Below are positions 413 through 64,000 of a stretch of 64,000 nucleotides of DNA, in pieces. Below the pieces are notes generated by a model, which worked only from the letters and a program-made list of their open reading frames with translations, was not told the DNA's origin and ran no database searches. Both the position numbers and the translations under genes were made by a program. The stretch's first letter is position 1. Every line of letters begins with the position of its first letter. This stretch comes from a virus (lineage: Duplodnaviria > Caudoviricetes), in the IMG/VR virus record IMGVR_UViG_3300028048_003175, positions 1-64,000 of that record. One strand, given 5' to 3'.

Positions 413-1009
413 TTAGTCGCTCTTGTTATCAGCCCCTTCTTTTTTTAATTGTTCCTTCTCCAGATATTGCTCACGCTGGAGAAGATTCATTTCACGATTC
501 ATGATTGAATGCTCCAGATGTAGAAGCTGCTCCTCCTTGGCACGCAGCAGCTTTTCTCGATCAATGATGTCCGTCATCTGCTTCGACACCGTTTCTTGAA
601 GCGACGACAGGCGTTCCTCACGCTTCAACACATTCTGTTCGCGCTCGGTGACGTTGAGGATGCGCTGCTTGTATTCCTCCGTCCCCATGATGCGCTCAAC
701 GGCTTCGTCCACCATGTCTCGGACGTTCTCGGTCTGAGGACGTGGCTGCTGTCCTGGTTCCAGAGTGATGGGGAACTCGTAGGTAAACAGGAAATTCGGG
801 TTCACGCGCGGGTACCTCTCTCTAATCTTACGGGCGACGGCCTCATTGATTTTCTTCACTCGTCCGCTCTGAATGTCGTAGATGCGCTGATAGTTCAGCC
901 CGATTTCCTTGGCGAACGTCGGGGCGTTAAGTCCCACTTCCTTCAGCAGTGCCTCGATTGCTTCTGAGGCAGTTGCCAGCTTTCTTTTGTTCTGTTCCAT
1001 AATCCGCAA
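413..1009 (-). CDS. Phage repressor: N-terminal XRE-type HTH with coiled-coil C-terminus
   Basis: HTH-like segment APTFAKEIGLNYQRIYDIQSGR; divergent from the early operon; no S24 peptidase motif visible. Confidence 0.75.
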   Translation of the reverse strand: MRIMEQNKRKLATASEAIEALLKEVGLNAPTFAKEIGLNYQRIYDIQSGRVKKINEAVARKIRERYPRVNPNFLFTYEFPITLEPGQQPRPQTENVRDMVDEAVERIMGTEEYKQRILNVTEREQNVLKREERLSSLQETVSKQMTDIIDREKLLRAKEEQLLHLEHSIMNREMNLLQREQYLEKEQLKKEGADNKSD

Positions 1010-1146: not shown

Positions 1147-1178
1147 CAAAGGTAATCAATTTAGTTGAAAATTGCAAA
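1147..1178 (-). promoter_or_regulatory. Leftward promoter for the repressor
   Basis: Minus strand TTTG (1178-1175), 20 nt, TACCTTTG (1154-1147). Confidence 0.7.
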
Positions 1179-1262
1179 TAAGTAATATAGCAAAAAGTAA
1201 CAAATTTGCTGATACGTCTCGGCTCTCTCCCGTGACGTTGAGGCGGAACAAAAAGGAAGACT

Positions 1263-1472
1263 ATGGAGAATTTAGGAGTTAAGAAGCTGCCGATTATGCC
1301 AACTCTTCGCAAGCTGGAGGTCGGCGAAAAATGCGAGTTCCCCATCGAGCAGCGTTCCAGCGTTGTCGTTCTCCTTCAGAGAATGAGGACGGAAGGGATG
1401 CGTGTCGGGTGGGATGCTGAGCTGGACACTGACAAGGAAGCCTTTATGGTTTATGTGACCAGAACAAAATGA
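1263..1472 (+). CDS. Small Cro-like DNA-binding protein
   Basis: 69 aa, first gene divergent from the repressor. Confidence 0.5.
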   Translation: MENLGVKKLPIMPTLRKLEVGEKCEFPIEQRSSVVVLLQRMRTEGMRVGWDAELDTDKEAFMVYVTRTK

Positions 1473-8628: not shown

Positions 8629-9233
8629 AAAAGCTGACTTCAACAACGGACATCGAGCAGGACCTTAGCGTTATGCTCTATAACTATTCTGATGGCACCC
8701 TCTGGCTCCATGAGCGCTGTCTGATAACCAGAGAAAAGGAAAATGTGTTCTTCCCCATACAGGGCGTGAAGGCGCGTGAAGGTGTTGTAACATGTATCTG
8801 CAGCACTCGTGACCTGTTGCCTTCCACTTCACGCAAGCCGGAGTGGTCTGAGTTTACTCTCAGCGAACAGTTGAAAATCCATGAAGCTGTGAAGCAAGAA
8901 TACTACCAACGGCTGTATGGTGACTTTGCCTACTTGCTGGATAGCATGGGAAAGGATATGCGGAAGGCTATCCTCAAGATGGGACGGCACAATGAGAACT
9001 ACAAGTTTACGGAAAGCGAGGCTCCACGTTTCTACCATGATGGGGCATGGCGTGTGGTGACGGAGCTTCAGTTCCCTCCTGATGACAACCTTGCGATCAT
9101 GGCTGGCTGGCATGACGACCGCTGCCGCAACAGAGGTGTCAATGCGCGTATGGCTCTAAGCTGCTTGCCACTGGAATGTCAGCGCGACTTCTTTTTGCTG
9201 ATGGCTCGACGCCGTGCCGCATCGCATATTTGA
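8625..9233 (+). CDS. Hypothetical protein
   Basis: ATGA overlap with the upstream gene. Confidence 0.6.
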   Translation: MKKLTSTTDIEQDLSVMLYNYSDGTLWLHERCLITREKENVFFPIQGVKAREGVVTCICSTRDLLPSTSRKPEWSEFTLSEQLKIHEAVKQEYYQRLYGDFAYLLDSMGKDMRKAILKMGRHNENYKFTESEAPRFYHDGAWRVVTELQFPPDDNLAIMAGWHDDRCRNRGVNARMALSCLPLECQRDFFLLMARRRAASHI

Positions 9234-9324
9234 TTAACACTATTTAATAAAACTTTCTCCGTAAAAACTTGCATATTTGATTATTTCTTTGTATCTTTGT
9301 ATTGCAAATAAGATAATAATCAAT
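9224..9324 (+). promoter_or_regulatory. Repeated early promoter/operator cassette, copy 1
   Basis: CTTG-N20-TATCTTTG (9292-9299) with three (T)GCA-N5-GATWA boxes. Confidence 0.85.
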
Positions 9325-9341
9325 TTAAAAACGGAACAATT

Positions 9342-13733: not shown

Positions 13734-13846
13734 TTGCAAATATGATTAACTATAATTAACGCTAAGGATTTTAAAATAATATCGTAAAAAGTTGCAAGAT
13801 TGATTATTTCTTTGTATCTTTGCCTATGCAAATAAGATAATAATCA
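13734..13846 (+). promoter_or_regulatory. Repeated early promoter/operator cassette, copy 2
   Basis: TATCTTTG at 13815-13822; three TGCA-N5-GATWA boxes. Confidence 0.85.
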
Positions 13847-13865
13847 CTCTTAACATTCAGAACAA

Positions 13866-24444: not shown

Positions 24445-24556
24445 TTGCAAATATGATTAACAACGTTTAACGATTTAGATTAAATTTTTCCCTTGAAAAG
24501 TTTGCATATTTGATTATTTCTTTGTATCTTTGTATTGCAAATAAGATAATAATCAA
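24445..24556 (+). promoter_or_regulatory. Repeated early promoter/operator cassette, copy 3
   Basis: TTTG (24501)-N20-TATCTTTG (24525-24532); three boxes. Confidence 0.85.
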
Positions 24557-24574
24557 TTCTAAAAAGGAACAGTT

Positions 24575-25533: not shown

Positions 25534-25636
25534 TTGCATATTTGATTAACTTTATTTAATAAAACTTTCTCCGTAAAAACTTGCATATTTGATTATTTCT
25601 TTGTATCTTTGCTTATGCAAATAAGATAATAATCAA
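25534..25636 (+). promoter_or_regulatory. Repeated early promoter/operator cassette, copy 4
   Basis: Near-identical to copy 1 over about 100 nt; TATCTTTG at 25604-25611. Confidence 0.85.
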
Positions 25637-25657
25637 ACCCATTTAACGGAACAAGTT

Positions 25658-27112: not shown

Positions 27113-27309
27113 ATGAAGAAGCTGCTTATTGACGTAATGCTGATGGGGGGGGTAAATTCTACTGTCAACTGACGTACAAGTATAACCCATTGTTCAAGCT
27201 GGACCTCAAAGACGTTGAAAGGTTCACCTATGAAAAATGCCCTTCATTAAAGAACCGCAAGGACGTGGTACTGGTAATGGGCGAGAATAACAAGAAAGTA
27301 TTTACTTAA
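27113..27309 (+). pseudogene. Small phage gene frameshifted at a G8 tract
   Basis: MKKLLIDVMLM-(G8)-GKFYCQLTYKYNPLFK...; in frame with G9 or G6. Confidence 0.6.
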
Positions 27310-27319
27310 CAAGAATAAT

Positions 27320-27673
27320 ATGGCTAAGAAAGTAGAAAGCAAGTTCCTCATCATCGAGGCAACGGCTCAAGAATTTATGGACGCTGGCTTTGGTGCCGGT
27401 CCTGTCACCGACTGTGGTGTGCTGACTGGTGGCATCTTCGCTGGCTTCAGCATGATATCCGTCGGCGGTGGTGAGCGTATGATATGTGACTACTGCAACG
27501 ACGAGATCAAAGCTGAGGACACCTGCTACTATGTGGCGGTGCTCAACCAGGTTATGTGTAAGGAATGCTTCGAGCGTTGGCACAAGTCAGCGAAATACTA
27601 TCCGGAAGATGTGGACTTTGAAAAGCAGAATTTCCAGCGCACACAAGACATGCTGGAAGCTGCAAGGCTTTAA
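27320..27673 (+). CDS. Zn-finger-like hypothetical protein
   Basis: CDYC...CKEC. Confidence 0.65.
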   Translation: MAKKVESKFLIIEATAQEFMDAGFGAGPVTDCGVLTGGIFAGFSMISVGGGERMICDYCNDEIKAEDTCYYVAVLNQVMCKECFERWHKSAKYYPEDVDFEKQNFQRTQDMLEAARL

Positions 27674-28131
27674 TGTTAAATCAAAAGGGGAAGAGAATTA
27701 TGAATACAAGTATAGCAAACAAGGCCATGCTCCGCTTTGCTAAGGAGTACGCCAAAGAGAACTGGTACCTGGAGGGATGGCAGAAGCCCGATGACTTCTG
27801 GGGCAACGCTTTCGACAAGCAGCTACACCCTGACAAGCCGCAGGTGGTTCGTGTCTGTTACGTCGCTCCCATCTTAGAGGAAGACAAGGAGGACCTGTAT
27901 CACTGGAAGATGCCACGCATAGAGATTGACAGCCACTTCGGACAGCCTCGCCTTAACGTCGTTGACCGTGAGCAGAACTTCTGCTGCCTGTCCTACGACC
28001 GGGACACCAACGAGTTCAAGGAAGCGCAGGCTTGGGGAAGCAAGGGACTGGAGCTGGCCGCGAGTGTTAAGAGCCAACTGGATCTGTTTATCCAGATGAT
28101 GAAGGACGGCTATGACGTCCAGTTTGAATGA
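27673..28131 (+). CDS. Hypothetical protein
   Basis: 152-aa ORF. Confidence 0.6.
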   Translation: MLNQKGKRIMNTSIANKAMLRFAKEYAKENWYLEGWQKPDDFWGNAFDKQLHPDKPQVVRVCYVAPILEEDKEDLYHWKMPRIEIDSHFGQPRLNVVDREQNFCCLSYDRDTNEFKEAQAWGSKGLELAASVKSQLDLFIQMMKDGYDVQFE

Positions 28132-28191
28132 CCTCTGACGGGGCTGGGTTATTATCTATTTGCAAAAGAATCTGTTCCGTAGCCCCGTCTC

Positions 28192-28230
28192 GGGCAGGCT
28201 GTCACACCGACGGTCTGCCCTTTTTCTTTT
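28192..28230 (+). terminator. Intrinsic terminator of the early operon
   Basis: GGGCAG...CTGCCC followed by TTTTTCTTTT. Confidence 0.75.
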
Positions 28231-28243
28231 GCCGTGCAGACAT

Positions 28244-28367
28244 AAAAAGAATGGACGAGCTTCACAGCCAGTCCATTTCAAATGCAAATAAGATAATATC
28301 AATCACAAAAAGTAACCTCCCGTCAAAAGACGCCGAGGCAGAACAATTTGGAATTGTATTAATCTCA
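28244..28367 (-). ncRNA. Putative trans-acting antisense sRNA (about 125 nt)
   Basis: Minus-strand CTTG-N20-TAATTTTG promoter (28403-28372); GTGA-loop terminator with U tract (28277-28244); complementary to 1173-1251. Confidence 0.6.
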
Positions 28368-28523
28368 TTTGCAAAATTAGCCTTTTTTCATCGAAATCAC
28401 AAGGATTTAGCCAAATTTTTAAAAAAAATAATCATTTTATATCGTAAAAAGTCGTAAAAGTTACAATAAATGATTATATTTGCAGCGTTTTTATAATCAC
28501 ATTCAAATTTTACCGACAGAAAA

Positions 28524-29297
28524 ATGGATAAGTTAGTTAACGTTAGGGAGTTAGTCATTAACCCGATGAACCCTCGGACCATCACGGAGTTCATGCAGGA
28601 GAAGCTGACCCAGAGCCTCTTGCTCTCTCCCTGGATGATGGCCATCAACCCCATCAAGATTGATAGCGAAGGTGTTATATGGAGTGGTAACGCCCGCTGT
28701 AAGTCCCTCCGCTCCATTCTTGAAATGGATGAGGATTCCATAGAGGACATGCTGACCCAGCAGACCATCTACAGGAACATGACCGACGAGCAGCAGCGTA
28801 ACCTTATCCTGTACTGGAAGAACTGGCAGGAGAACCCGGAGGTGCCATGCCGTGACGTGAGCAGCTTTACTGAGGATGAGAAGCGCGAGCTGCTGGTGAA
28901 GGAAAACCTGCATGCCGGTGAGGACGATCCGGAAATGCTGCGTAAGTTCTTTGACCGTGACCTTATCAGCGACTTCTTCGGCACCGTAAGCTGGGACCTC
29001 TATGACTATGCCGACAAGATAAATGATGTTGAGGCTGGTAAGAACAAGATTACGATGAAGACCTTCAAGTGTGGCTACGTCGAGTTCTTCCTGACCGATG
29101 CAGAGTATGAGAGCCTGGAGGAGCTTGTGGAGGAATACAAGAGCAAGCACGGTGACAAGACCGACGGTTTCCTTGCCTGGCTGCTGGGTGATGAAGAGCT
29201 TCAGAACGCCATCCTCTACGGTGAGAAGGAAGACAGTGGCGATGGGGAGGAAGAGACGAGTGAACAGGAAGTAGAACCAACAGGAGAGGAGGAATAA
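28524..29297 (+). CDS. ParB-like domain protein 1
   Basis: NPMNPRTI...PIKID...SGNAR...LLVKEN. Confidence 0.75.
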   Translation: MDKLVNVRELVINPMNPRTITEFMQEKLTQSLLLSPWMMAINPIKIDSEGVIWSGNARCKSLRSILEMDEDSIEDMLTQQTIYRNMTDEQQRNLILYWKNWQENPEVPCRDVSSFTEDEKRELLVKENLHAGEDDPEMLRKFFDRDLISDFFGTVSWDLYDYADKINDVEAGKNKITMKTFKCGYVEFFLTDAEYESLEELVEEYKSKHGDKTDGFLAWLLGDEELQNAILYGEKEDSGDGEEETSEQEVEPTGEEE

Positions 29298-29300
29298 ACC

Positions 29301-29990
29301 ATGATACAGCAAATCAATGTCAGCGAGCTACAGCTCAACCCCATCAACCCCAGAAAGATCAAGGCTGCTAACCTCAAGAAGCTCCAGCAGAGCATCATGC
29401 TCTTCCCCAAGATGCTCAACGAGGCAAAGCTCATCGTTATTGACGAGGGCAATGTTGTCCTTGAGGGCAACCAGCGTGTTAAAGTGCTGCAGGAAGAGAT
29501 TCTTGCCAAGGAGCCTTTCGCATGGAAGGTGGTACTGCAGGACAACGACCGCTACCAGACCATGAGCGAAAACGAGAAGGAGGCAGTCATCAGCTTCTGG
29601 GAGAAGTGGAAGGAGAACCCCATTGTCATCGTTGACAGACACGAGGGTCTCACCGATGAGCAGAAGAAAGAAGTCATCATCAAAGGTAACAAGGAGTTCG
29701 GAGAGTTCGACTACGGCAAGGCTGAAATCCTCTTCGACGAGGTGACGCTGGTGAACTTCGGTGTTGACGAGGGTGTGTTCTACGACCCCGACAAAGACCC
29801 CACCGTTGTAACGTCCATCAAGGGCAGTCGCGTGAAGAAGATTGACATGCTCATCTTCGGCAAGTACTCGGTGCCTGTCACCCGTGAGGAGTATGACCTG
29901 CTTCGTGAGAAGTACGAGGAGTATGTTGACACAGCATGTGTGGACTTCGGCTTCGTCAAGGATATTGTCAGCAAACTTAACGCAAGATAA
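29301..29990 (+). CDS. ParB-like domain protein 2 (paralog of the upstream gene)
   Basis: NPINPRKI...IVID...EGNQR...IIKGN. Confidence 0.75.
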   Translation: MIQQINVSELQLNPINPRKIKAANLKKLQQSIMLFPKMLNEAKLIVIDEGNVVLEGNQRVKVLQEEILAKEPFAWKVVLQDNDRYQTMSENEKEAVISFWEKWKENPIVIVDRHEGLTDEQKKEVIIKGNKEFGEFDYGKAEILFDEVTLVNFGVDEGVFYDPDKDPTVVTSIKGSRVKKIDMLIFGKYSVPVTREEYDLLREKYEEYVDTACVDFGFVKDIVSKLNAR

Positions 29991-31421: not shown

Positions 31422-31512
31422 TTGCACGAGGGATTAAAAATAAAAGCCTAAAAAGTTGCAAGATTGATTATTTTTTTGTATCTTTGTCTATGCAAGTAAG
31501 ATTATTTATCAA
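31422..31512 (+). promoter_or_regulatory. Repeated promoter/operator cassette, copy 5 (diverged)
   Basis: TATCTTTG at 31479-31486; three TGCA-N5-GATTA boxes. Confidence 0.75.
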
Positions 31513-31535
31513 TCCAGAAAACGAGCAAAAGAACA

Positions 31536-48659: not shown

Positions 48660-49973
48660 ATGGCAAAACTTTGTATTTATAACGAAATCGTTGATGAAGA
48701 GACCAAGGTGATGTACCAAGACTGGTGCGGCACTGACGGTGTCTGCTACAAGGACATTCACAGCTTCCTCGAAGCAATGAAGGATGATGACGATGTCATC
48801 GATATCCGCCTGCATTGTCCGGGTGGTGACTGCATTGAGGGCTGGGCTATCTATGATGCGCTCCGCAACTCGGGCAAGACAATCTCGGCAACCATCGAGG
48901 GAGAGTGTTCATCCATGGCCACCATCGTCTTGCTGGCAGCACCGAAGGAGCGTCGCTTCGGCTTCGCCAACTCACGGCTTTGCATCCACAATCCTGCCGT
49001 TGCGTGGCTTGACATCTGCACCATGGAGCGTCTGACCGCTGACGAGCTGGATAACCTGAAGGGCAAGCTGGACGTTCAGAAGCAGGCTCTCATCGAGGAA
49101 CAGACAAAGATTCTGAACCTCTACGTTGAGCGCACGGGAGCAGATCGTGGCGACCTCCAGGCGCTGATGAACGAAGACAAGTATGTCGATATGGATAAGG
49201 CTATCGAGCTTGGCTTCATTTCCTCTACTGTTGCCCCCAACACGGCATCTAAGAAAACCCATCATAAAACCTCAAGTAAAATGAAAGAAACAAAAGTGAA
49301 GGACAATGTCCTGAAGAAGCTGCTTGCATTGGCAGGCTTCGGAAAGATTGAGGACGCCGAGGCGGCTATCCTCTGTCAGAAGATTACCGCAGCTGACGGT
49401 AGTGAGTTCACCGTGGAACGTGAGGATGGCGACCCACAGGTAGGCGACAAGGCCTATCCTAACGGCACCTACACACTGGACGACGGTACAGTGATTGTTG
49501 TGACCGACGAGGTCATCGAGAGCATTACCCCTGCTGGTGGTGGCGAAGATGACGACGACGAGGATCTCAAGGCCCTGCAGGAGCAGGTGAATACGCTGAC
49601 CACACAGGTCGAGACGCTGACTTCTGAGAAGCAGGCTCTCGCCGACGAGAAGGCTACCTTGGAGAGTGAGAAGGCTACGCTGGAGCAGCAGGTCACCGAC
49701 CTCACCAACGAGAAGACCACTCTGGAGGCTGAGAAGCAGACTCTCACCGAGGCTCAGAAGACCGAGGAAGAGACCGCAATCCTTGACATCGTGGCTAAGG
49801 CTGGTGGCAAGAATTGGCTGGAGAATGTATGCAAGATGCAGTCCACTTTCCATCCTGGCAACCGTTCCTTTGTCGAGAAGCAGGGTGGTGGTCACGAGGG
49901 AGAGACCAAGACCCAGAAGATGCTCCGTGAGCAGCGTGAGGCACAGGAGGCTAAACGTAAGGCTCGTAAGTAA
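48660..49973 (+). CDS. ClpP-type prohead protease/scaffold fusion
   Basis: HCPGG, CSSMAT (catalytic Ser), CIHNP, AIELGF; coiled-coil C-terminus. Confidence 0.88.
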   Translation: MAKLCIYNEIVDEETKVMYQDWCGTDGVCYKDIHSFLEAMKDDDDVIDIRLHCPGGDCIEGWAIYDALRNSGKTISATIEGECSSMATIVLLAAPKERRFGFANSRLCIHNPAVAWLDICTMERLTADELDNLKGKLDVQKQALIEEQTKILNLYVERTGADRGDLQALMNEDKYVDMDKAIELGFISSTVAPNTASKKTHHKTSSKMKETKVKDNVLKKLLALAGFGKIEDAEAAILCQKITAADGSEFTVEREDGDPQVGDKAYPNGTYTLDDGTVIVVTDEVIESITPAGGGEDDDDEDLKALQEQVNTLTTQVETLTSEKQALADEKATLESEKATLEQQVTDLTNEKTTLEAEKQTLTEAQKTEEETAILDIVAKAGGKNWLENVCKMQSTFHPGNRSFVEKQGGGHEGETKTQKMLREQREAQEAKRKARK

Positions 49974-62985: not shown

Positions 62986-63198
62986 AAACAAGTTAATCAG
63001 CTCTATGGTGTATGCTTGCGTGACAGGCAATGACAATGGCTGACAAGTCCGAGCCTCGGCAACAGCAATTTCTCTCCAGTCTGCAAAGAAATGGAAAGAA
63101 TTGGAAAGCGGAAAAACCAAAGGTGCAACCTATGATAGGTGAGTAAACAAGGAATTGGCTGAAAGTCTTAACGGTTGCGGAATGAAGGATTATTCAGA

Positions 63199-64000
63199 AT
63201 GAGTAAAAGATACGGTCATATATTACCGCAAATCATCGATAGGCGAAACATGGACGATGCCTTTGATGAGGTTGTAGGTGGCCTTGAGTCGAAAGAGCGT
63301 CGTGAGCACTATGAGGCACAAAGAGAGGATATTATATCACGGCTGACTGCCAAGATAGGCTCCGGCACCTTTCGAATCACTCATTACGAACAGTTCTGGG
63401 TACAAGACGGACCTAAGCGTAGGTTGATACAGTCGCCCAGTGTGAAAGACAGAATAGGTTGCAATGCCGTGATGAGAGTGGTGGAGAAGTATATCTACCC
63501 GACTATCATCAAGACTTCTGCTGCAAGCATCAAAGGACGTGGCATGCACAGACTATACCGTAAGATGCGGACGGACGTGCGCCATGACCGAGAGGGAACG
63601 AAGTACTTCTATATGTGCGACATCAGAAAGTTCTATGAGAGCGTAGATCAAGACCTGACGTTTGAAATATTGAAGGGCTATATCAAAGACCCTGTGGTGC
63701 TGCCGATGCTGGAGAGTTTTATAAGACTCATGCCGAAAGGACTTTCCATCGGATTGCGTTCTTCGCAGTGCTTCGGCAATATGCTCCTGTCAAAGATGGG
63801 TCACAGGCTAAAGGAGAAAGAGGGTGTTCGCTACCTTTATATCTACTGTGATGACATACGAGTGTATGGTGCAACGAAGAAGTGGCTTTGGCATATCCGA
63901 GACATCATTCACGAAGAGATAGAGGGTCTTGGACTGGAGATAAAGCCCAGTGAGGCAGTCAAGCCTACGACAGAGGGAAATGATTTCCTTGGGTATATCG
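63199..64000 (+). CDS. DGR reverse transcriptase (truncated by the window edge)
   Basis: Translated by hand: MSKRYG...KRRLI...DIRKFYESVD...GLSIGLRSSQ...YCDD...DFLGY; absent from the ORF track because it has no stop in the window. Confidence 0.95.
   Translation, partial: MSKRYGHILPQIIDRRNMDDAFDEVVGGLESKERREHYEAQREDIISRLTAKIGSGTFRITHYEQFWVQDGPKRRLIQSPSVKDRIGCNAVMRVVEKYIYPTIIKTSAASIKGRGMHRLYRKMRTDVRHDREGTKYFYMCDIRKFYESVDQDLTFEILKGYIKDPVVLPMLESFIRLMPKGLSIGLRSSQCFGNMLLSKMGHRLKEKEGVRYLYIYCDDIRVYGATKKWLWHIRDIIHEEIEGLGLEIKPSEAVKPTTEGNDFLGYI

Follow-up and report, generated by a model that had tools for sequence, protein, structure and literature searches.

A predicted minus-strand RNA gene complementary to the cro-like leader and to repeated early leaders in a rumen/gut Prevotellaceae prophage

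Main finding and setting

The intergenic region that precedes the first ParB-like gene of this prophage very probably encodes, judged from its sequence and that of its relatives, a non-coding RNA gene on the minus strand, with a length of 123-133 nt across the relatives. The predicted RNA is complementary, in a chain of short blocks, to the leader of the phage's own cro-like gene and to a family of short early leaders, and from sequence and modelling it would act by pairing with these leaders, a reading to which a rough probability of 0.55 is given. Comparison of the sequences of three deep lineages supports co-evolution of the complementarity to the cro-like leader with that leader.

The window, which is the whole stretch of 64,000 nucleotides analysed, corresponds to the first 64 kb of an IMG/VR provirus record of 97.8 kb, and nearly all of its genes lie on the plus strand. 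The RNA locus occupies a 393-nt intergenic region between the end of a 152-aa gene (28131) and the start of the first ParB-like gene (28524). Three ParB-like genes lie downstream of the locus and are followed by a helicase and a terminase, the latter seen in relatives. In all lineages the RNA gene is positioned where the early region gives way to the block leading to the terminase. The features of the switch region and of the RNA locus are as follows.

413-1009, minus strand: repressor-like gene, divergent from the gene in the cro position
1263-1472, plus strand: cro-like gene (69 aa), followed by a LuxR/GerE-type regulator (1469-1747) and then by the AAA_24 replication block
28192-28230, plus strand: terminator of the upstream operon, from a terminator scan, kept in close relatives and facing the terminator of the RNA
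28244-28368, minus strand: predicted non-coding RNA of about 125 nt, with the putative 5' end at about 28364-28368
28244-28277, minus strand: intrinsic terminator, with a hairpin at 28250-28277 (GUGA loop) and a T-run at 28244-28249
28278-28300, minus strand: module A, formed by the single-stranded linker UUUGCAUUUGA together with the 3' arm of the long stem
28306-28316, minus strand: module B, complementary to CAAAAAGUAAC in the cro leader at 1191-1201 (11/11 identity)
28316-28338, minus strand: apical hairpin, with an inner 4-bp stem and an outer stem of the CCUC/GAGG type
28329-28346, minus strand: module C, 18 nt with complementarity to positions 1234-1251 of the cro leader
28350-28365, minus strand: 5' module AGAUUAAUACAAUUCC, invariant, forming the 5' arm of the long stem
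28372-28402, minus strand: promoter of the RNA gene, with the -33 TTG at 28400-28402, a 20-nt spacer and the -7 box TAATTTTG at 28372-28379
28475-28482, plus strand: -7 box of the next plus-strand promoter downstream of the RNA gene

At the far end of the window, an Rfam RT-3 RNA was found at 62995-63178 (56 bits, E 1.7e-10), just ahead of a reverse-transcriptase gene (63175-64000); the two, located behind a 2836-aa gene, constitute a diversity-generating retroelement.

Promoter, terminator and predicted fold

A first-pass annotation of the window had described a minus-strand promoter and a minus-strand terminator bracketing about 125 nt, and both elements were recovered here, the promoter pattern at 28372-28402 and the hairpin at 28250-28277 with its T-run. 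The pattern TTG-N19-20-TAnnTTTG was present 12 times on the plus strand of the 97.8-kb genome (11 of these at intergenic promoter positions) and three times on the minus strand, the promoter of the RNA gene being one of these three, which gives 15 occurrences on both strands against 1.8 expected from shuffled sequences. This consensus fits the -7 and -33 motifs obtained by dRNA-seq of Segatella copri, and the -33 regions of the RNA gene in the relatives resemble the AAAnnTTTGG box, also from Segatella copri dRNA-seq.

The T-run of the terminator is present on the minus strand only, and when the hairpin is read on the plus strand it contains two adjacent mismatches and lacks a T-run. The simple terminator scan overlooks the minus-strand hairpin because of an internal mismatch. 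The fold energy of the minus-strand RNA was -41.5 kcal/mol (z -6.1), versus -31.1 for the plus strand, and the predicted shape is a long hairpin with imperfect pairing, joined by about 10 single-stranded nucleotides to the terminator hairpin. In the ensemble, a linker of 10-13 nt (UUUGCAU...) was fully unpaired in all three lineages, and internal loops leave part of the segment complementary to CAGAACA exposed.

An Rfam search of the window at gathering thresholds gave no match for the RNA locus, C4 included; C4 was also absent among the matches up to E=10 in 28100-28560, and all the matches listed there were far under their cut-offs. Parts of a 2.1-kb stretch were present in sequencing runs from sheep, bovine and other animal gut samples, six of them metatranscriptome runs. 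The assembled metatranscriptome contigs of relatives (four runs aligned) stop at about 28095-28109 and resume at about 28555, leaving the intergenic region without coverage.

Complementarity to the cro-like leader

The principal target region predicted for the RNA is the following.

1173-1251, plus strand: target blocks within the leader ahead of the cro-like gene 1263-1472, with the -7 box TAACTTTG at 1113-1120 and an estimated message start at about 1127

Four colinear blocks of similarity between the locus and this leader had been proposed in the first-pass annotation, and they were confirmed with identities of 15/18, 7/7, 11/11 and 10/10. The three differences in the 18-nt block, read from the plus strand of the locus to the cro leader, are C>T, C>T and A>G, and all three give G.U pairs for a minus-strand RNA on a plus-strand mRNA, as had also been claimed. 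Module C forms a predicted helix of 18 contiguous pairs, including the three G.U pairs, with an energy of -30.1 kcal/mol, and this helix covers positions -29 to -12 relative to the ATG. The part of the cro leader that is complementary to module A is 1173-1182.

Gapped local alignment of the locus was performed against 4862 windows on both strands, and the cro leader was ranked first, with a score of 61.5 versus a mean of 18.4 and a standard deviation of 4.6 (z of about 9-9.4). The next sixteen matches were all on the plus strand and were mostly cassette leaders, which are described below. The cofold gain, computed with both partners allowed to unfold, was -30.6 kcal/mol for the cro leader, while random plus-strand windows gave a mean of -3.4, a standard deviation of 2.0 and a minimum of -10.1 kcal/mol. 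When 139 translation-start windows were ranked, the leader of gene 73296 came first, followed by the cro leader and then by the cassettes. The original proposal of an antisense RNA to the cro leader held as far as this leader is the top window genome-wide in the alignment, and had to be widened, as cro is not the sole match and about ten cassette leaders match as well.

The single blocks were not significant genome-wide, and eleven-mers were common. One site in a coding region (49350-49365, plus strand) presents a 16-bp complement, containing G.U pairs, to the GC-rich segment of the RNA, with a predicted energy of -30.2 kcal/mol; it equals the cro helix in stability and is taken as the chance level for single helices in this model. 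As the 18-bp helix is not unique, the argument rests on the chain of blocks, on its position and on its evolution. A full-length duplexfold scan of the genome did not discriminate the cro leader (-74.7) from random windows (up to -73.5). The duplex in the opposite orientation was predicted to be about equally stable, so thermodynamics alone does not fix the strand.

The cro leader also contains a hairpin (1216-1240) that covaries, with G.U pairs on the plus strand. On its minus strand, at 1147-1177, lies a full Bacteroidota promoter pattern (TTGCAA-N-TACCTTTG) aimed at the repressor-like gene 413-1009; with this promoter inside the cro leader, the two divergent messages would overlap. The -33 region of this predicted repressor promoter coincides with block A of the cro leader.

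The cassette leaders and other candidate targets

A motif of 16-17 nt, TGCAAATAAGATAATA, which includes the 10-nt block of the locus, stands at the front of short leaders belonging to a repeated promoter cassette. Of these promoter-leader cassettes, about eleven near-identical examples were observed, each with CTTG-N20-TATCTTTG, then TGCAAATAAGATAATAATCAA..., then [AG]GAACA-ATG. Their positions are listed below.

9224-9341, plus strand: cassette in the window
13734-13865, plus strand: cassette in the window
24445-24574, plus strand: cassette in the window
25534-25657, plus strand: cassette in the window
31422-31535, plus strand: cassette in the window
72241, 79617, 88948, 92608 and 94754, plus strand: cassettes beyond the window
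9303-9341, plus strand: example of a cassette leader, preceded by TATCTTTG and ending at the ATG
13826, 24536, 25615 and 31491, plus strand: starts of the other cassette leaders in the window
72241, 73268, 79615, 88946, 90420, 92608 and 94752, plus strand: starts of cassette leaders beyond the window

Exact copies of TGCAAATAAGATAATA were found in the window at 9303, 13827, 24536 and 25616, with five more beyond it (the copy at 72241 has A for the first T). Each copy is located 3-4 nt past a TATCTTTG -7 box, and the leader ends with [AG]GAACA, a few bases and the ATG. In three related genomes, all copies of the cassette motif were on the gene strand and none was on the other strand.

In about ten short cassette leaders, the first 17-26 nt are matched by the linker and the 3' arm of the RNA. 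Module A is complementary to AUGCAAAUAAGAUAAUA of these leaders, with perfect matches of 17 nt at 13826, 25615, 79615, 88946 and 94752. Module C is also complementary to the CAGAACA/GGAACA element just upstream of the ATGs of the cassette genes, and the [AG]GAACA-ATG element was present at 11 cassette-led starts. The cofold gain for nine cassette leaders was between -15 and -25 kcal/mol. The leader of gene 73296 (73268-73295, ATGCAAATAGGAAATAATCAATCACATT-ATG) gave the best short-leader match to the RNA, with a cofold gain of -19.8, and the cassette promoter is absent directly upstream of this gene.

A further similarity was observed in the leader of the AAA_24 (replication) operon, which at 2154-2170 carries GGAATTGTATTA.., identical over a 12-mer to the plus strand of the locus at 28350-28365. 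The identity to this leader extends over 12-14 nt, with lineage-specific ends, in the lineages of H. timonensis and L136 (see below). The predicted gain for this leader in the present genome was weak (-6 to -9 kcal/mol), and the matching core is palindromic. The match of the 5' module may thus mark a fourth target or a palindromic operator.

Relatives of the locus and co-evolution with the leaders

Relatives were collected through the ParB-like protein and through DNA patterns, and the locus was recovered in eight distinct versions, which fall into three deep lineages. The window group comprises the window, L004, L005, L006, L013 and L114. The second lineage (L108/L120) is that of a prophage inside the genome of Hoylesella (Prevotella) timonensis (isolate assembly GCA_002894165.1, with the locus at about 144.9 kb of NBAX01000001.1), a distant relative in which the flanking protein is 65% identical, and the third is represented by L124, with a flanking protein 64% identical. 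No match to 27300-29400 was found in the INPHARED phage collection, two scans of genome contigs, one with a DNA pattern and one with a ParB-like protein alignment, gave no relatives, and the cro-leader pattern had no match in viral contigs. A looser DNA pattern in viral contigs retrieved 47 loci, all of them unrelated, and three of the six 21-mer matches in metagenomes were unrelated coding DNA.

At the left ends of related prophages (L044, L045, L051-L055, L131 and L136), the repressor end adjoins different host genes in different assemblies, namely those for a dihydroorotate dehydrogenase, a threonine synthase/SBF or an fn3-PATR protein, or an integrase gene, which indicates several integration sites or variable left arms. 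In L005 and L006, about 440 extra bases (at about 2160-2600, corresponding to window position 28131) separate the upstream gene from the conserved intergenic region, and the RNA gene thus stays on the ParB-like side of the junction.

The cro leaders of the relatives were reached via exact-protein look-ups. The 18-nt block in the locus and in the leader reads as follows.

Window: locus plus strand GACGCCGAGGCAGAACAA, cro leader GACGTTGAGGCGGAACAA
G001: locus plus strand GGCATCGAGGCAGAACAG, cro leader GGTGTTGAGGTGGAACAA
L114 / L122: locus plus strand GGCGCCGAGGCAGAACAA, cro leader GGCGTTGAGGCGGAACAA

Within the window group, position 2 of this block changed from A to G in both the RNA gene and the cro leader. 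Eight of the nine window-group differences listed were C>T or A>G, some of them common by descent between relatives, and such differences give G.U pairs only if the RNA is transcribed from the minus strand. In the H. timonensis prophage, the RNA gene and its own cro leader both carry CGAAA(C)GGCAGAAC.GAAAGGA and AAAATGCAAATAAG.TTTA. For the third lineage, the matching blocks were predicted before its cro leader (L136) was reached, and this leader contained GCAAATAAGAATT, CCAAAAAGTAA and GCAG..GGCAGAACAA, the same variants as the RNA gene of L124. Covariation of RNA and target, which the first-pass annotation had named as a check on its proposal, was thus observed as lineage-specific blocks common to the RNA gene and its own cro leader in all three deep lineages. 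The block of module B was invariant in all the RNA loci and in the cro leaders of the three lineages.

When RNA loci and leaders were aligned in a 5x5 matrix, each of the three deep lineages had its highest score, along both row and column, with the cognate partner (61.5, 65.2 and 51.5). By energy, the cognate pairs (-30.6, -36.1 and -23.4) were the best in two of the three deep lineages and were otherwise tied. The cassette leaders also share with module A an extension that is specific to the lineage, reading TAATA(A)TCAAT in the window group and TTAATAACCAATC in the lineage of L124. Of six block differences in the two distant lineages, only about two were compatible with wobble pairing. Concerted evolution through recombination among the repeats could mimic this co-evolution or add to it.

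Conservation of the RNA gene and alternative explanations

The minus-strand TTG, the spacer of 19-20 nt and TAnnTTTG were present in all eight versions of the locus, with changes at n or non-consensus positions only; the -7 boxes of the RNA gene across the relatives were TAATTTTG, TACTTTTG, TATCTTTG and TAACTTTG. In the terminator, both sides changed in 8 of 11 pairs and 93% of the cells remained paired, compared with 37-50% in slid controls, and in two distant lineages the outer stem was wholly replaced with the hairpin retained. Two pairs of the apical hairpin also had changes on both sides (CGUC/GACG, CGCC/GGCG, CUGC/GCAG), and its U.G pairs, as read from the minus strand, would become C.A if the plus strand were read. 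Over the whole consensus structure, 32 cells were G.U versus 2 that were C.A, which indicates that the structure is better on the minus strand. The long stem behaved differently in its lower two helices, in which no pair had changes on both sides and the sequence was conserved; in helix 2, 8 of 15 pairs departed through unpaired cells only.

This lack of covariation in the lower stem is what would be expected if the locus were mainly a DNA element, in which a phage regulator, the one that also binds the cassettes and the switch region, would recognize a TATTAATA-type palindrome and a pair of inverted operator boxes (one resembling TGCAWATWWGATWA at 28283, the other in inverted orientation at about 28360-28373), and the transcript would be incidental. 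Block A does recur as a DNA box outside the transcribed part of the cassettes, where it overlies each -33 element (TGCATATTTGATTA), a similar box is present at the start site of the RNA itself, and the palindromic core of the AAA_24 match agrees with such an origin. However, blocks B and C are not boxes and yet are specific to the cro leader and vary with it in each lineage, the promoter consensus and the strongly covarying minus-strand terminator are conserved, and the G.U asymmetry favours a minus-strand RNA. A locus that is mainly a DNA element is accordingly considered unlikely. Part of the similarity between locus and leaders may nevertheless reflect a protein operator, and the box at the start site could mean that the RNA is switched together with the early promoters.

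The position of the gene suggests another explanation, in which the RNA is real and its effect is local: convergent transcription and back-to-back terminators would insulate the ParB-like/methylase/helicase/terminase block from read-through of the upstream early operon, and the sequence of the RNA itself would be of little importance. In all lineages the gene lies exactly between the plus-strand terminator (28192-28230) and the plus-strand promoter with its -7 box at 28475-28482. The best-conserved part of the intergenic region is, however, the transcribed part, and the invariant stretches of the RNA, GUUCUGCCU, ACUUUUUG and UCUUAUUUGC, are exact complements of leader blocks, which an insulator would not need. 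This explanation is judged improbable.

Many prophage sRNAs act on host mRNAs (PMC12197685), and the RNA could likewise have mainly host messages as targets, its matches to phage leaders being a relic of an origin from a duplicated leader. The hosts differ, however (rumen Prevotellaceae and H. timonensis), and the segments that are conserved are the leader complements; lineage-specific covariation with the phage's own cro and cassette leaders would, moreover, need selection on those very pairings. There is accordingly little to recommend an RNA directed mainly at the host.

A decaying, functionless copy of a leader cassette or a coding function was the least probable of the explanations, with very small odds: the locus does resemble a cassette leader without the plus-strand promoter and the ATG, and an ATG-started frame of 21 codons is present in the window, but the locus is kept at full length where the flanking protein is only 64-65% identical, and the 21-aa frame has lost its start codon in five of the eight versions (L004, L013, L114, L120 and L124), is frame-shifted in one relative and has its ATG at or before the predicted 5' end of the RNA. 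The peptide, which the first-pass annotation had named as the product that would count against an RNA, was rejected on these grounds. No conserved open frame was found on either strand among the relatives in the small-protein test. A plus-strand ORF of 109 aa (28128-28457) is open in the window only, with stops in all frames of seven relatives, and was considered spurious; it begins at an ATGA overlap with the upstream stop and crosses two terminators and the RNA gene.

Proposed mechanism and role

The RNA gene would be transcribed leftwards, against every neighbouring gene, from its own Bacteroidota -33/-7 promoter to its own terminator. If the preferred reading of an RNA that pairs with early leaders is correct, first contact would be made between the open linker and the AUGCAAA of the leaders, and pairing would then invade the 3' arm of the stem. 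On the cro leader, pairing of modules B and C would reach position -12 of the ATG, and pairing would take up almost all of the 5' UTR of the short cassette leaders. The ribosome-loading region would thereby be covered and ribosome loading blocked, the long duplexes could be cut by RNase III, and the messages of the cro-like operon and of the early regulon would be expected to become less stable and less translated. Transcription, pairing in vivo and repression are what we infer from sequence and modelling. With regard to timing, the RNA might work either in the lysogen, as a second lock beside the repressor, or after induction, in the shut-off of early genes.

It is doubtful whether the RNA is an immunity factor in the strict sense. 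A broader and equally tentative proposal is that this single RNA, built from concatenated complements of leader modules, might be a master antisense lock of the whole early regulon of the phage. Such a scheme would tag about a dozen early messages, namely those of the cro-like operon and of about ten operons driven by cassettes, and probably that of the replication operon as well. If the RNA were such a master lock, the RNA and its tags would co-evolve and provide RNA-based immunity specificity in Prevotellaceae/Bacteroidales prophages; it would constitute a compact, sequence-programmable second layer of control over the early regulon in hosts without classical sRNA chaperones. The control of lysis and lysogeny is almost unexplored in phages of the Bacteroidota, and the cultured carrier, Hoylesella timonensis, would offer a directly testable model if the RNA works as proposed. 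The code between RNA and leaders could also help to predict the heteroimmunity of gut and rumen prophages from sequence alone.

Comparison with known systems

The c4 (immI) RNAs of P1 and P7, the CI RNA of P4 and the CA RNA of N15 are small phage RNAs in which short blocks pair with a leader or ribosome-binding region on the lytic side. The P1 immI and P4 RNAs are processed from a leader transcript that has the same sense as the operon controlled. The RNA described here is like c4, CI and CA in that it is not cis-antisense, in that it is predicted to pair through short blocks with a lytic leader of the same phage, and in that its blocks vary with the target. It is unlike them in that it lies on the opposite strand as a predicted unit with a promoter and a terminator of its own, at a distance of 19-27 kb from the cro-like leader, and in that it matches about ten further leaders; unlike the processed C4-type RNAs, it is also not preceded by a plus-strand promoter. 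The analogy to P1 C4-type RNAs drawn in the first-pass annotation is thus sound with respect to the predicted pairing with a leader, and does not extend to family membership or gene organization, as the locus has no Rfam match to C4 and is a predicted transcription unit of its own on the opposite strand.

The sar RNA of P22 and the OOP RNA of lambda are short antisense RNAs of temperate phages that run from promoter to terminator and reduce the expression of a switch gene through pairing at or near its translation start (PMC12197685), and the duplexes of OOP are substrates for RNase III (PMC12197685). Whereas sar and OOP are cis-encoded and perfectly complementary to the targets they overlap, the present RNA owes its complementarity to dispersed direct repeats, and its predicted pairing is imperfect, with bulges and G.U pairs. 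The Bacteroidota are not mentioned in a 2025 review of phage-derived sRNAs, which includes no sRNA from this phylum (PMC12197685). DicF is a prophage-encoded, trans-acting sRNA with multiple targets, which acts on host genes with Hfq (PMC12197685). The host phylum of the present phage, the Bacteroidota, is without Hfq and ProQ. The RNA is like DicF in being prophage-encoded, in its predicted action in trans and in reaching several messages through short seeds, and is unlike DicF in that its predicted regulon consists of the phage's own early transcripts, which bear a common tag. The new features of this candidate regulator are its distance of 19-27 kb from the target, its modular complementarity to multiple leaders and the phylum of its host.
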